From an uncultured Bacteroidota bacterium (GTDB lineage: Bacteria > Bacteroidota > Ignavibacteria > UBA10030 > UBA8401): a stretch of DNA of 64,000 nucleotides. Made by a program: the position numbers and the translations under genes. How positions within the stretch are numbered: the stretch's first letter is position 1; each line of letters opens with the position of its first letter. The DNA lies in NCBI GenBank assembly GCA_937920105.1, contig CALETH010000131.1, forward strand, positions 6,400 to 70,399, read 5' to 3'. Positions 13,058 through 63,050 of this stretch are shown piece by piece. Under the pieces are notes generated by a model. The model was not told the origin of the DNA and ran no database searches. It worked only from the letters and a program-made list of their open reading frames with translations.

Positions 13058-13816
13058 ATGTTAGATAAAAATACAATAATCGAAAAACTATCCACCAAAT
13101 ATATTGGAAAAAACTTTTCTGTTTTTGCAACAATAGATTCCACTAATACATTTGCAAAATCTTTGGATGCACCAAACGGAACAGTAATTTTTGCTGAAGA
13201 ACAAACATTGGGAAGAGGAAGGATGCAAAGAAGTTGGGTTGCAGAAAAAGAAAAAAATCTTCTCTTTTCAATTATTCTGTATCCGGAAATAGAGCAAACA
13301 AAAATTCCGTTAATTTCTTTTGTTGCTTCGCTTGCGGTTGCAAAGGCAATTCGCGAAACAACAAAACTTTCTACAGAATGTAAATGGCCTAATGATGTTT
13401 TGGTGAATGAAAAAAAAGTCTGTGGGATTTTATTGGAAACAGTTTCTTCCTCAAAAAAAATTATTGTGGGAATTGGCGTTAATGTTAATCAGAAAAATTT
13501 TTCTCAAGAACTTCAACAGAAGGCAACATCATTATACAATGAAGTGAAAAGCGAAATTGACAGAGGTATGTTGTTGATAAAGATTTTAGAAAATTTTGAG
13601 TTTTGGTACGAACAACTTCAAAAAGAATCTTCTATTATAATAGATGAATGGAAAAAATATTCTACAATGCTTGGAAAAAAGATTATCATTAACGAACACC
13701 ATTCTTCTTTTGAAGCAATTGCTGTAGATATACAAAACGATGGTGGATTGTGTATCAAAACTTTTTCTGGTGAAGAAAGAGTTGTGTATTCTGGTGATGT
13801 GAGTGTGAAACTCTAA
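13058..13816 (+). CDS. birA: Biotin--[acetyl-CoA-carboxylase] ligase (group I, no N-terminal HTH)
   Basis: GRGRMQRSW biotin-protein-ligase motif; 252 aa. Confidence 0.9.
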   Translation: MLDKNTIIEKLSTKYIGKNFSVFATIDSTNTFAKSLDAPNGTVIFAEEQTLGRGRMQRSWVAEKEKNLLFSIILYPEIEQTKIPLISFVASLAVAKAIRETTKLSTECKWPNDVLVNEKKVCGILLETVSSSKKIIVGIGVNVNQKNFSQELQQKATSLYNEVKSEIDRGMLLIKILENFEFWYEQLQKESSIIIDEWKKYSTMLGKKIIINEHHSSFEAIAVDIQNDGGLCIKTFSGEERVVYSGDVSVKL

Positions 13817-13886
13817 GTTTTATTATTGGATGTAAATTTTTTATATTTTAGTAGAAATACATTTTACAATTATAAGGAATATCATA

Positions 13887-14105
13887 ATGTCTACAACCAT
13901 AGCAAATATGACAAAACGAGAATTTACGCAAATTATTTCTGATGTTGTTGAAAAAAAACTTCTTGAAATTTTTGCAGACCCTGATAACGGATTAATTTTA
14001 CGAGAAATCGTTCGTAAACAATTACTTCAACAATTAAAAGAAGTAAATGCAGGAAAAAGAGGAAAAAATATTGACGATGTTGTAAAAGAATTGGGATTAC
14101 AATAA
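13887..14105 (+). CDS. Small protein, putative antitoxin partner of the downstream RelE/ParE toxin
   Basis: 72 aa, RBS aaggaa, stop/start TAAATG junction with the toxin gene; no strong family assignment. Confidence 0.5.
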   Translation: MSTTIANMTKREFTQIISDVVEKKLLEIFADPDNGLILREIVRKQLLQQLKEVNAGKRGKNIDDVVKELGLQ

Positions 14106-14369
14106 ATGTATTCGATTCAATTTTTGCAATCCGCAACTAAAAGTCTTAAAAAATTAGATAAAAAAGTTTCCCAACAAATTATTGACCGTATTCGTTGGTT
14201 GGCAGAAAACATTCAATCCACAAAATTATATCCTCTCAAAGGTGAACTTTCCGGTTTGTATAAAATACGAGAAGGTTCATATCGTATTATTTTTCAGACA
14301 CTACATAAAGAAAAAATAATTATCATTCATAGTATTGGGCATAGAAGGGATATTTATAAGGAACGATGA
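14106..14369 (+). CDS. RelE/ParE-family (BrnT-like) type II toxin
   Basis: LKGELSGLYKIREGSYRIIFQTLHKEKIIIIHSIGHRRDIYK matches the RelE/ParE core (G.YR..Y......I.I..IGHR...Y). Confidence 0.8.
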   Translation: MYSIQFLQSATKSLKKLDKKVSQQIIDRIRWLAENIQSTKLYPLKGELSGLYKIREGSYRIIFQTLHKEKIIIIHSIGHRRDIYKER

Positions 14370-14635
14370 AAAAATTATCTCGCTTCAAAAATGAAAATGA
14401 AGAAAGAAAATTTTGGGCAACACACAGTCCATTAGAGTATTTTGATAAGAAAAATATGGTGATAACAACATTTCCTAATCTTAAACCCACAAGTAGAACA
14501 ATTTCTATTCGTCTTCCGGAATTATTGTTAGAAGAAATTAAAGTGTTGGCAAACGAAAAAGATATTCCTTATCAATCTATGTTAAAAATCTTATTGACAG
14601 AAAAAGTAAGAGAAGAATTTAAGATAAAAAAATGA
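14366..14635 (+). CDS. BrnA/CopG-like antitoxin
   Basis: FWATHSPLEYFD...ISIRLPELLLEEIKVLANEKDIPYQSMLKILL matches the BrnA antitoxin family pattern; ATGA overlap with the toxin gene. Confidence 0.7.
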   Translation: MKKLSRFKNENEERKFWATHSPLEYFDKKNMVITTFPNLKPTSRTISIRLPELLLEEIKVLANEKDIPYQSMLKILLTEKVREEFKIKK

Positions 14636-14708
14636 AGATATTGTAAAAAAATTAGGATTAAAAATAATTGTTCATTGCTCATTAATAATTGTTAATTGAT
14701 AATTGATT

Positions 14709-15500
14709 ATGCTTCTTGCTATAGATATCGGTAACACCCATACAGTGTTTGGCATCTACAAAAACTCTACACTTCTCGGAAGTTGGCGAGTAACAAGTTT
14801 TACTACTCGTACCGAAGATGAATTTGGTGCTTTAGTAAAAACATTTTGCGAAAATGCAAAAATCCCACTCAAAAAAATTTCTGTTGTAGGAATTTCTTCA
14901 GTAGTTCCCAATCTTACCGAAACAGTAAGCAGAATGTCCAAAAAATATTTTGCATTGGAGCCAATAATTATTTCTGCAGATTTATCGTTGGGAATAAATG
15001 TTCTGTATGATGACCCTTTTGCTGTTGGTGCAGACCGTTTATGCAACGCTGTGGCTGCCTTCACCAAATATCAATCTCCACTTATTATTGTAGATTTTGG
15101 TACGGCAACAACGTACGATGTTGTTTCCAAAGCAGGAGATTATCTTGGTGGAGTGATTACTGCCGGAGTGGAAACATCTGCTGCAGAACTCCATCGAAGA
15201 GCAGCAAAACTTCCCAAAATAGAATTGCGATTTCCTGAAAATGTTATCGGCAAAAATACTGTTCACAGTATGCAATCCGGAATTTTGTATGGAGCATTAG
15301 ATGCAATGGAATCTATGATTCGCCGCATTACTAAAGAATTGGGAGAACAACCAATAGTTATTGCTACGGGTGGATTTTCGGAAATGTTATGTCGTCATTC
15401 AAAACTCATTCATCATCACGAACCAAATTTAGTGTTGGATGGTATTCGTATTATTGTAGAAAAAGTTGCTCTGCATCACAAAAAGAAACGTAGTTCATAA
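14709..15500 (+). CDS. coaX: Type III pantothenate kinase
   Basis: LLAIDIGNTHTVFGIY N-terminal ASKHA motif; the birA-coaX neighbourhood is conserved in many bacteria. The track ORF starts at TTG 14703. Confidence 0.88.
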   Translation: MLLAIDIGNTHTVFGIYKNSTLLGSWRVTSFTTRTEDEFGALVKTFCENAKIPLKKISVVGISSVVPNLTETVSRMSKKYFALEPIIISADLSLGINVLYDDPFAVGADRLCNAVAAFTKYQSPLIIVDFGTATTYDVVSKAGDYLGGVITAGVETSAAELHRRAAKLPKIELRFPENVIGKNTVHSMQSGILYGALDAMESMIRRITKELGEQPIVIATGGFSEMLCRHSKLIHHHEPNLVLDGIRIIVEKVALHHKKKRSS

Positions 15501-60212: not shown

Positions 60213-63050
60213 ATGAGAAAAATCTTTCCTCTTTTCTTTTGTATTATTTCCACAACTTTTGCACAAATGTTTCCATACTATCATTACACCGTTGATGATG
60301 GTTTGCCGCATTCAGTAGTGTATAGAATGCTTCAAGATAAAAAGGGCTTTTTGTGGTTCACAACGGATAATGGAGTAAGTAAATATGATGGTGAAACATT
60401 TACGAATTTTTCTGTTGTAGAGGGTCTTCTTTCCAACAGTGTTGTTCCAATAGCAGAATCTTCGGATGGAAAAATTTTTGTTGGAGTATATGGAAAAGGA
60501 ATTAATTATATACAAAATAATAAAGTGTATTTATATCATAAGAATATTAATATAAACTCTTTTATGATAGAACGTAATGGTTATTTGTATGTACAATCAG
60601 GTTTTGCATGTGTAAAAATTAATGATACTAGTAGTCAGTTTTTATGGAAACCTACGGGGAAATCTTTTGGTTTATACAAAACCTTACAACAAGATATTTT
60701 AGTCATGAAAGAAGGAGGGGGTCTTTACAGCATGGTTAATGATACAATTGTACCATACAAAAATAATATTCTTGGGAACAAAGAAATATTTTCTTTACAC
60801 CAAGAAGAAGATAGTATTCTTTGGTGCGGTTCTATAGGAAAGATATTAAAAATTCAGGATACAATAGTACATGAAATAGTTCTTCCTTTTAAAAAAAAAG
60901 TTTATGGAATTTTTATTGATTCTCAAAAGCGAATCTGGTTTACTATTCCAAATGAAGGCATTTTTTTATTAGAAAATGAAAAAATCACCTCTATAGGCAA
61001 AAAATTAAATATAGAAAAAGATAATATAGGTTGGCCAAAAGAAGATAAAGAAGGAAATATATGGATTACACCATATGGCAAGGAAGTGTATTGTATCTAT
61101 AATACTTATATCACCAATTATTCTACACAAGATGGTTTAAGCCATAACTATGTAAAAACAATAACACAAGATAGATATGGAAGAATTTTAATTGGAACAC
61201 TTAATGGAATTACAATTATTCATAATGATAGTGTAACTCTACCAAAAAATAATTATCAAAATTATGAAGTACGGACAATCTTTACAGGATTGAAAGATAC
61301 AATAGCAATTTTTGGTTCTGCGTCTGCTATCCAGAACAAAAAAAATCTTCCATATGATAGCTACACAACATATTACTATTGGCCAAATTTAACATCTCTA
61401 GCAAAAATTAATAATACAGATACATTATTAGGTGGAATGTGGCAAAACTGGATAGTTTTTACTAATCCTCAAGGCAATATTATACGATATACACAACTTT
61501 ATAAAAACTTTTCCGGTTACATTCGAACAAAAAAACTTTATAAAGATGTGCACAATAGAATATGGATTGGTACAACATCAGGTTTATGTCAATATGTAAA
61601 TACTGATAGTGTGTATTGTTATGAAGGTGATACACCACTCACAGGAATTATTGAAGATATTACCGAAGATAGTTCACAGAGAGTATGGGTCGTCAGCAAT
61701 AAAGGAGTAATGTATTACAAAAATAATGAATGGAAAAATTTTATCTTACCGGAATATACAATCAATGCCGCAACATCACTTCAGTTTGATTTAAAGAACC
61801 ATCTTTGGCTTGGTACATCAAACGGTTTGTATTATTATGATGGAAAAACCGTAAAACATTTTACTAAATATTCAGGTCTTACTTCCAACAATATTACTAC
61901 ACTTTATTATGAAAAAGAAAAAAATTTTTTATGGATTGGAACAACTGAAGGTTTATCCAGAATAAATATTACACAATATCATTCGTCTATTGCTAAACCA
62001 CTTACACCGATTATTTCAAAAGTGGTTGTTGAAGATTCTACTATTTATGAACCCACATCATTACAACTTTCATCAATACAAAATGCTGTAAAAATTTATT
62101 TTGCTGGACTTCATTTTCAACGTCCTAAAAGTGTAATTTATGAATACCGACTTAATGAAGACACTTTATGGCGAAAAACACAAAGTAATATAGTGGAACT
62201 GTTAAATATTTCTTATGGAACAACACAACTTTTTATGCGGGCAAAAACAGAAAACAGAGAATGGAGTACCCCAATTACATTTCTTATAGAAAAAGAAACA
62301 CCATTCTGGGCAACACTTCCATTTTACATTTTTTGTGGTATGATTGGCATCACTATTATTTTTGTGATAACGGAACGTCGCATTCGTAGTATAAAAAAAC
62401 GCGAGCAGGAAAAAACAACATTACTCAATACAATGAAAAAATTAGAATACCAAGCACTTGCTGCAATGATGAATCCGCATTTTATTTTTAATTCACTTAA
62501 TGCCATACAATCTTTAATAAATAATTTGGAAATCCGCAAAGCCAATGAATATCTTACAAGTTTTTCACAACTGATACGTAGTAATTTGGATGTTGTAGAA
62601 AAAAATATAATTTCATTGCACGAAGAATTAGAAAGATTACAATTATATTTATTATTAGAAAAACTTCGATTTGGAGATTCTTTAGAATATATCATCACCG
62701 TAGAAAAAGAAATAGATTTAGAAGAAACCTTTATTCCTAATATGCTTTTACAACCATTTGTAGAAAATTCTTTACGACATGGAATTTTACCCAGTGGAAG
62801 AGATGGAAAAATTTCTATTATTATCAAAAAGGAAAATACTATAAAAATTTTTATAGAAGATAATGGTGTTGGTATGAAAACAACATCTTTTGATTATACT
62901 TCTAAGGGAATACGACTTATACAAGAACGCCTACAACTGCTTTACAAAGAACAGTACACACCAATTCTTTTTCATACACTCACCGATAATTCTGGAAATA
63001 TTCTGGGTACTCGTGTAGAAATCACTCTTCCAGACTCTGCAATACTCTAA
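60213..63050 (+). CDS. Sensor histidine kinase with periplasmic two-component-regulator beta-propeller + Y_Y_Y domain and LytS-type (His_kinase/HATPase_c) cytoplasmic module
   Basis: 945 aa; repeated propeller blades (LW.GT..GL..YD), single TM (FYIFCGMIGITIIFVI), then the PF06580-like H-box region (MNPHFIFNSLNAIQSLI) and ATPase. Confidence 0.85.
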   Translation: MRKIFPLFFCIISTTFAQMFPYYHYTVDDGLPHSVVYRMLQDKKGFLWFTTDNGVSKYDGETFTNFSVVEGLLSNSVVPIAESSDGKIFVGVYGKGINYIQNNKVYLYHKNININSFMIERNGYLYVQSGFACVKINDTSSQFLWKPTGKSFGLYKTLQQDILVMKEGGGLYSMVNDTIVPYKNNILGNKEIFSLHQEEDSILWCGSIGKILKIQDTIVHEIVLPFKKKVYGIFIDSQKRIWFTIPNEGIFLLENEKITSIGKKLNIEKDNIGWPKEDKEGNIWITPYGKEVYCIYNTYITNYSTQDGLSHNYVKTITQDRYGRILIGTLNGITIIHNDSVTLPKNNYQNYEVRTIFTGLKDTIAIFGSASAIQNKKNLPYDSYTTYYYWPNLTSLAKINNTDTLLGGMWQNWIVFTNPQGNIIRYTQLYKNFSGYIRTKKLYKDVHNRIWIGTTSGLCQYVNTDSVYCYEGDTPLTGIIEDITEDSSQRVWVVSNKGVMYYKNNEWKNFILPEYTINAATSLQFDLKNHLWLGTSNGLYYYDGKTVKHFTKYSGLTSNNITTLYYEKEKNFLWIGTTEGLSRINITQYHSSIAKPLTPIISKVVVEDSTIYEPTSLQLSSIQNAVKIYFAGLHFQRPKSVIYEYRLNEDTLWRKTQSNIVELLNISYGTTQLFMRAKTENREWSTPITFLIEKETPFWATLPFYIFCGMIGITIIFVITERRIRSIKKREQEKTTLLNTMKKLEYQALAAMMNPHFIFNSLNAIQSLINNLEIRKANEYLTSFSQLIRSNLDVVEKNIISLHEELERLQLYLLLEKLRFGDSLEYIITVEKEIDLEETFIPNMLLQPFVENSLRHGILPSGRDGKISIIIKKENTIKIFIEDNGVGMKTTSFDYTSKGIRLIQERLQLLYKEQYTPILFHTLTDNSGNILGTRVEITLPDSAIL

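Follow-up and report, generated by a model that had tools for sequence, protein, structure and literature searches.

Why should a single putative toxin gene be flanked by two candidate antitoxin genes, and do the three genes form one system? This question is raised by a block of three small open reading frames (ORFs) located between birA and coaX in a 64,000-nucleotide stretch of DNA from an uncultured Bacteroidota bacterium (contig CALETH010000131.1, positions 6,400 to 70,399), hereafter referred to as the window. The genes follow each other in the order birA, ORF1, ORF2, ORF3, and coaX, and the three small ORFs, encoding 72, 87, and 89 amino acids (aa), respectively, are all on the + strand. 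As read in the sequence, ORF1 meets ORF2 at a TAAATG junction, while ORF2 and ORF3 overlap by the bases ATGA. An earlier note on this DNA had described the block between birA and coaX with these same two junctions, and both coordinates and sequence agreed with that description. It had offered two explanations, namely that the 72-aa ORF represents a third component of the system, acting as a regulator or chaperone, or that two toxin-antitoxin (TA) modules had fused with loss of one toxin. The second explanation fits a complete ORF1-ORF2 pair accompanied by an ORF3 without BrnT, and we give a probability of roughly 80% to the reading that the block arose from two unrelated type II TA modules that joined and lost one of their toxins. 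The first explanation is not supported, since ORF1 turned out to be the usual partner of the toxin family and ORF3 the odd one out.

The middle ORF and its upstream partner

ORF2 (positions 14106-14369, + strand) matched the Pfam family PF05016 (ParE_toxin) with 42.6 bits (cut-off 23) and marginally passed the cut-off of the TIGR02385 RelE_StbE model (28.2 bits; cut-off 27.9). A match to the phage RelE-like family phrog_1213 was also found (E=1e-20), and the protein could be aligned over its full length with the Thermus thermophilus RelE-like toxin 2KHE (8e-10), Mycobacterium tuberculosis Rv2866 (1e-6), and Escherichia coli RelE. With both profile cut-offs passed and these full-length RelE alignments at hand, the earlier proposal that the middle ORF is a RelE/ParE-fold toxin was borne out, and the profile searches placed it in a toxin family rather than in a non-toxin one. 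The label "BrnT-like", which had also been attached to it, did not hold: ORF2 is RelE-like, no match to PF04365 was detected, and a hidden Markov model (HMM) built from the BrnT proteins of four canonical loci missed it.

The catalytic constellation of RelE consists of K54, R61, R81, and Y87, and ParE is without it. In the HMMER alignment to 4V7K/4FXE, residues K53, R60, R80, and Y84 of ORF2 stood opposite K54, R61, R81, and Y87 of E. coli RelE, and K53, R55, R60, H79, R80, and Y84 were invariant across 17 close ORF2 homologues. PF05016 has been shown to include an mRNA-cleaving subcluster, and the gene order in this family is antitoxin then toxin (PMC11980606). Because the RelE catalytic residues are conserved and the family includes this subcluster, ORF2 is most likely a RelE-type toxin that acts as a ribosome-dependent mRNA endonuclease.

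ORF1 (13887-14105, + strand) belongs to a conserved family that has so far been given no curated model. An exhaustive HMMER search recovered 263 cluster representatives at E<=1e-3, 31 of them at <=1e-10 (clusters were defined at 50% identity), mostly 71-73 aa in length and matching end-to-end. The case that the 72-aa ORF would have no homologues, which the earlier note had considered, can thereby be set aside. A word-indexed search with ORF1 returned only ORF1 itself, which reflects the limited sensitivity of that method, since the family was recovered by the exhaustive search.

A scan of metagenomes with a 12-sequence alignment of the ORF1 family yielded 80 loci, 72 of which had enough downstream sequence to be informative, and in 67 of these 72 a toxin of the ORF2 family was encoded directly 3' of the ORF1 homologue. 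When contexts were instead anchored on the toxin, in unrelated genomes, an upstream ORF of 71-88 aa with 45-57% identity to ORF1 was present in four out of four, and the other neighbours differed among all four. Furthermore, the pairwise distances of ORF1 and ORF2 were correlated over 58 pairs (Mantel r=0.72), with none of 2000 permutations exceeding 0.16. Being the regular and co-inherited partner of the ORF2 toxin subfamily, ORF1 is an antitoxin by every genomic criterion, and we infer that it is the cognate antitoxin of ORF2. No partner other than this usual one is conserved in the toxin family.

No match for ORF1 was found in Pfam, PHROG, or PADLOC, and none above the cut-off in NCBIfam, where the best score was obtained with the RelB-like model NF048017 (12.9 bits; cut-off 50); this match was C-terminal and was seen in 2 of 83 family members. 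The AlphaFold2 model of ORF1, based on an 83-sequence alignment, had a predicted local distance difference test (pLDDT) score of 85.8 and consisted of three helices (residues 10-28, 40-54, and 62-69). A Foldseek search with this model gave nothing significant (best E=1.3, template modelling [TM] score <=0.32), and neither did a profile search of the family against the PDB sequences (best E=0.15). The top Foldseek entries pointed to a winged-helix/LysR DNA-binding fold, which we dismissed given E values above 1 and TM scores of about 0.3. Kinship of the ORF1 and ORF3 families was ruled out as well, with an hhalign probability of 0.1%.

Two side observations concern ORF1 and its relatives. The gene contains a 26-nt repeat (13930-13955 versus 14065-14090, 73% identical), and the peptides specified by its two copies, ISDVVEKK in helix 1 and IDDVVKE in helix 3, resemble each other. 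The repeat could stem from a duplication within the gene, or it could be a coincidence in a coding sequence rich in AT. Moreover, orphan copies of this putative antitoxin also exist, since no trace of a toxin was found downstream in five of the 72 informative loci (L018, L029, L058, L092, and L094).

ORF3 and its seam with ORF2

ORF3 (14366-14635, + strand) matched PF12441 (CopG_antitoxin) with 90.8 bits (cut-off 28), covering 79 of the 79 profile positions, and stayed under the cut-off of the narrower NCBIfam BrnA equivalog NF047399 (31 bits versus 60). Its residues 40-88 gave weak matches to RHH_5 (E=0.036), DUF6290 (0.017), and an Arc-like repressor family of phrog (0.0013). BrnA has a C-terminal ribbon-helix-helix (RHH) domain and is an autoregulator, and in brnTA the toxin gene precedes the antitoxin gene (PMC11980606). 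The two candidate antitoxins that the earlier note had seen around one toxin are thus both retained, the downstream one as BrnA/CopG-like by its PF12441 match and the upstream one as the regular partner of the toxin, while the third-component role suggested for the latter is not.

The ORF3 family comprises more than 2000 matches, and ORF3 is 70-73% identical to proteins whose genes always come after a gene for BrnT and overlap with the end of that gene. In nine out of nine independent contexts, the ORF3 relative had brnT, or what is left of it, directly upstream. It was intact and overlapping in seven of them (P0077, P0095, P0099, P0145, P0129, and two viral contigs); in locus L193 it was fused in frame to brnA, and in locus L018 it was present only as a fragment. 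At the locus studied here, no trace of brnT was detected by tblastn and HMM searches of the locus itself and of the 64-kb window. With no brnT at the locus, ORF3 lies outside any brnTA module, and it is best read as a PF12441 family member that has become an orphan antitoxin.

All the conserved columns of the family are intact in ORF3, including those of the highly conserved N-terminal half, and its score against the family HMM (E=1e-46) is within the range of the family. A C-terminal truncation of ORF3 was considered and dismissed, since some relatives stop at the same point (EEFRIAK in P0116). The only BrnT-like matches in the window come from a 945-aa ORF at 60213-63050, which looks like a beta-propeller sensor joined to a histidine kinase; the weak match at about 62.3 kb (tblastn E=0.059, HMM 4e-3) lies inside or antisense to this sensor-kinase ORF and was attributed to chance.

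The relatives of ORF3 also included loci with altered modules. In L193 (1195-1776; GCA_016177845.1, JACOUO010000003.1), BrnT and BrnA profile matches lie in a single reading frame, so that the product appears to be a BrnT-BrnA fusion protein, and such fusions have been reported (PMC11980606). The brnT of L013 carries a frameshift and continues into the frame of brnA. In L018 (1280-2216), a fragment of brnT is found together with an intact brnA of 98 aa, and about 220 nt beyond these lies a homologue of ORF1 without a downstream toxin; the locus looks like a decayed TA patch with two orphan antitoxins, in which the two families have come together independently. Scans of viral contigs contributed only two brnTA pairs; homologues of ORF1 were absent from them, and the RelE-like toxins that they contained were all distant and had antitoxins of other kinds.

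The three-gene order was not encountered elsewhere. An ORF3-type gene was the next gene after ORF1-ORF2 in none of the 57 pairs with room downstream, the three genes occurred together in none of the four toxin-anchored contexts, and neither ORF1 nor ORF2 was found in this arrangement at any of the nine ORF3-family contexts. Among the distant RelE-like toxins of viral contigs, 0 out of 26 had ORF1- or ORF3-type neighbours, and all 26 had a small ORF ending at the toxin start. ORF1 and ORF2 were found together at this position in one other place only, a short contig of identical sequence. Given the counts of 0/57 and 0/4, and given that the other occurrence is an identical contig, the three-gene arrangement is a one-off.

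We then compared the gene ends at the seam with those of their families. Members of the ORF2 family end in GHRRDIYK[RQK][RK] followed by the stop codon, at 87 aa, and ORF2 ends in the same way, so both its length and its C-terminus are native to the toxin family. The ORF3 family starts with ATGAA[AG]AAA (MKK), a start that is situated 23 nt within brnT at canonical loci. Because both gene ends are native to their families, the join falls within the four bases ATGA (14366-14369, + strand), where the native stop of ORF2 sits on the native start of ORF3. Since the toxin family ends in [AG]A/CG[ATG] TGA, an ATGA overlap arises easily, and in locus L002 the 3' end of the toxin gene has one with an unrelated permease gene. 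Judged from these family comparisons, the ATGA overlap by itself cannot be taken as evidence of design.

The relic behind ORF3 and the birA-coaX interval

Positions 14062-14109, which hold the final 14 codons of ORF1 together with its stop codon and the start of the toxin gene, have a diverged copy at 14623-14671 (+ strand). This relic straddles the stop codon of ORF3 (14633-14635) and reaches into the spacer before coaX. Relic and source matched at 36 of 46 positions in a gapless comparison (maximum 31 in 200 dinucleotide shuffles), and the gapped score was 46, with a null maximum of 38 in 500 shuffles. In the ORF1 frame, the relic encodes EDIVKKLGL, which came 2nd-3rd among the roughly 80,000 six-frame positions scored for the C-terminal motif of the ORF1 family, tied with one chance match. 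No such downstream repeat was present in 61 other ORF1-ORF2 cassettes (maximum 26/46 matches), and the idea that the relic could be a general feature of the cassette, for example a recombination site, was therefore ruled out.

ORF2 and ORF3 are in this way flanked by direct repeats of the 3' end of ORF1, after which comes a 21-nt tandem duplication directly 5' of coaX (14663-14704, + strand). Its two units, AATAATTGTTCATTGCTCATT and AATAATTGTTAATTGATAATT, are 86% identical, the relic overlaps at its end with the first unit, and the duplication repeats the AATAATTGT junction motif of the relic. The presence of a relic of the ORF1-end/ORF2-start junction just 3' of ORF3 suggests that the locus was rearranged at least once more, and supports a history of rearrangement over a designed operon. 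Possible routes to such a relic include single-crossover integration, a tandem duplication followed by deletion, and insertion into a second copy of the cassette.

The flanking genes showed what this position looks like in related organisms. The 22 closest loci were from metagenome-assembled genomes of Ignavibacteriota/Bacteroidota, with a CoaX identity of 54-76%, and in 20 of them birA preceded coaX by 16-328 nt and no TA genes lay between the two; in the window, the gap is about 890 nt. In addition, NCBIfam holds a model for a fused BirA/CoaX protein (NF009862). The statement of the earlier note that birA and coaX are commonly adjacent or fused is therefore supported, for adjacency by the 20 loci of this lineage and for fusion by the existence of the model. 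Because the relatives have birA adjoining coaX without TA genes, we regard the three-gene block as a lineage-specific insertion in an Ignavibacteriota-like organism. The guanine-plus-cytosine (GC) content of the three ORFs is 27-30% (27% for ORF3), and since this is near the 33.5% of the window, the three genes are compositionally at home.

The upstream flank birA (13058-13816, + strand) encodes a biotin-protein ligase, as judged by TIGR00121 (176 bits; cut-off 83), PF03099, and PF02237, and the downstream flank coaX (14709-15500, + strand) encodes a type III pantothenate kinase (PF03309, 230 bits; NF009855, 303 bits). The automatic ORF call for coaX starts at a TTG at 14703, and the alignment of its relatives begins at the ATG at 14709 (MLLAIDIGNT), which is probably the true start. 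Between birA and ORF1 there is a spacer of 70 nt with 15.7% GC (13817-13886, + strand), which is presumed to hold the promoter/operator. No sigma-70-like site beyond shuffle expectation was detected in the birA-coaX interval, for a phylum in which the sigma-70 model is doubtful, and a sequence scan gave no terminator-like sites between the two genes. PADLOC did not assign the block to any defence system.

Competing readings and comparison with known systems

If two modules have merged, ORF1-ORF2 would constitute a complete module in antitoxin-then-toxin order, in which ORF2 would cleave mRNA on the ribosome and ORF1 would bind ORF2 directly and, as presumed by analogy, autoregulate the operon. 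ORF3 would be the antitoxin half of a brnT-brnA module from which the toxin was removed completely, and the RelE-type toxin gene would now sit exactly at the brnT position, with its stop codon overlapping the start of ORF3. Owing to this placement, ORF3 would have lost its own promoter, and its expression would depend on read-through from the ORF1 operon and on translational coupling. The ORF3 protein could be no more than a harmless remnant, or its retention could be due to neutralisation of incoming BrnT toxins or to a role as an RHH repressor.

Several points weigh against this reading. ORF3 is fully intact, its GC content of 27% is host-like, and no spacer separates it from ORF2, as would also be expected of a recruited third component. 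The nine contexts of the ORF3 family were sampled out of more than 2000 members, and the absence of brnT applies to the 64-kb window, so that a copy may lie elsewhere in the genome. The antitoxin role of ORF1 is deduced from two things, synteny and co-divergence; ORF1 has no recognisable DNA-binding fold or structural match, and autoregulation by ORF1 is an assumption.

ORF3 could have been kept as an anti-addiction or immunity gene that acts against incoming BrnT toxins from plasmids, phages, or other brnTA copies and that owes its expression to the ORF1-ORF2 operon. Such a role would be a variant of the merger at the level of function and does not compete with it over the origin of the block. 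It would account for the intactness of ORF3, including the highly conserved N-terminal half, and brnTA modules are common in related Bacteroidota/Ignavibacteriota metagenomes and present on viral contigs; anti-addiction roles have also been proposed for orphan antitoxins (PMC7192599). However, the intactness of ORF3 could simply reflect a recent event, and we consider this function rather unlikely. The broader proposition, in which ORF3 has been co-opted either to act on the RelE-type module, as an RHH regulator or as a second antitoxin from another family, or to provide standing anti-BrnT immunity, is in our view unlikely. ORF1, for its part, would represent a widespread antitoxin family without a curated model or known fold relative.

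It could also be hypothesized that the block is a true three-component system, in which ORF3 was recruited either to regulate transcription of the operon as an RHH protein, in the manner of PaaR2 for paaA2-parE2, or to cross-neutralise ORF2 as a second antitoxin. The BECR/RelE fold is common to BrnT and RelE and could make this feasible. ORF3 is intact in its conserved columns, scores within the family range, has a host-like composition, and shares with ORF2 an ATGA overlap of the coupling type, and since ORF1 has no recognisable DNA-binding domain, an RHH protein could supply the regulation. RelE/ParE three-gene modules with a separate regulator are known (PMC8630535), and cross-talk by orphan antitoxins has been proposed (PMC7192599). 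Nevertheless, the order was seen in 0/57 ORF1-ORF2 pairs, 0/4 toxin-anchored contexts, and 0/9 ORF3-anchored contexts, and because it is absent from these other contexts, ORF1 alone must suffice for the module elsewhere. The overlap is easily formed with the end of this toxin gene, as seen with the permease gene in L002, and the nearby relic points to accidental rearrangement. A three-component system therefore seems quite unlikely.

The reading in which ORF2 and ORF3 are the real pair, in toxin-then-antitoxin (HigBA/BrnTA-like) order and with ORF1 unrelated or accessory, would be in line with the overlap of the two genes and with a sub-threshold Gp49/HigB-like match of ORF2 (PF05973, 23.6 bits; cut-off 23.9), a family which uses that order (PMC11980606), but it is highly improbable, as the genes of close ORF2 homologues (55-70% identity) are invariably preceded by an ORF1 homologue and never followed by an ORF3-type gene, ORF1 and ORF2 co-diverge, ORF3 homologues pair with BrnT, and each of the 26 distant RelE-like toxins from viral contigs has a small ORF ending at its start.

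Returning to the merger of two modules, the locus offers an example of TA assembly and decay, in which a complete RelE-type pair is accompanied by a stranded BrnA antitoxin and by the relic of a junction, all between two housekeeping genes that usually adjoin. The block is a patchwork of known parts and no new three-part system. The most useful by-product may be the ORF1 family, which is sizeable and near-obligately linked to a RelE subfamily, yet lacks a Pfam or NCBIfam model and a structural relative; because it has no curated model, annotation pipelines will call ORF1 hypothetical and report the toxin as unpaired. The seam between ORF2 and ORF3 provides a simple test case for the recruitment of an orphan antitoxin by a different RelE-fold toxin, or for anti-addiction immunity. 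If ORF3 has indeed been co-opted, the locus would capture in nature an antitoxin that switched partners between branches of the RelE fold.

Among known systems, ORF1-ORF2 is most directly compared with RelBE (E. coli RelBE, M. tuberculosis RelBE2 [Rv2865/Rv2866], and T. thermophilus RelE 2KHE), with which it shares the antitoxin-then-toxin order and abutting genes, the RelE-fold signature of the 87-aa ORF2 with its catalytic Arg/Arg/Tyr positions, and a small, mostly helical antitoxin. Unlike in RelBE, however, this antitoxin matches no RelB, ParD, Phd/YefM, HigA, CopG/RHH, or other curated antitoxin model, and no solved structure. ORF3 resembles the antitoxin of Brucella abortus BrnT/BrnA (PF04365/PF12441) in its N-terminal conserved region and in a possible C-terminal RHH-like region, whereas the toxin of that module is absent here and a RelE-type gene of another Pfam family occupies the brnT position; in addition, the usual 23-nt overlap of brnT and brnA is replaced by the 4-nt ATGA overlap with ORF2.

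The paaR2-paaA2-parE2 system of E. coli O157:H7 likewise comprises three small co-directional genes, with a RelE/ParE-superfamily toxin and a DNA-binding-type protein (PMC8630535). In that system, the third gene encodes a dedicated regulator in a conserved arrangement (PMC8630535), whereas ORF3 is the antitoxin of another TA family, is encoded downstream of the toxin, and stands in an arrangement seen in no other locus examined. Finally, orphan antitoxins are common, with a median of nine per Klebsiella strain (PMC7192599). The present locus differs from decaying TA loci in that brnT is gone without a trace and ORF3 is fused seamlessly onto an active-looking module, with no pseudogene beside it; it resembles such loci in having an ORF3 without its toxin beside another TA module, and L018 shows both of these families decayed.

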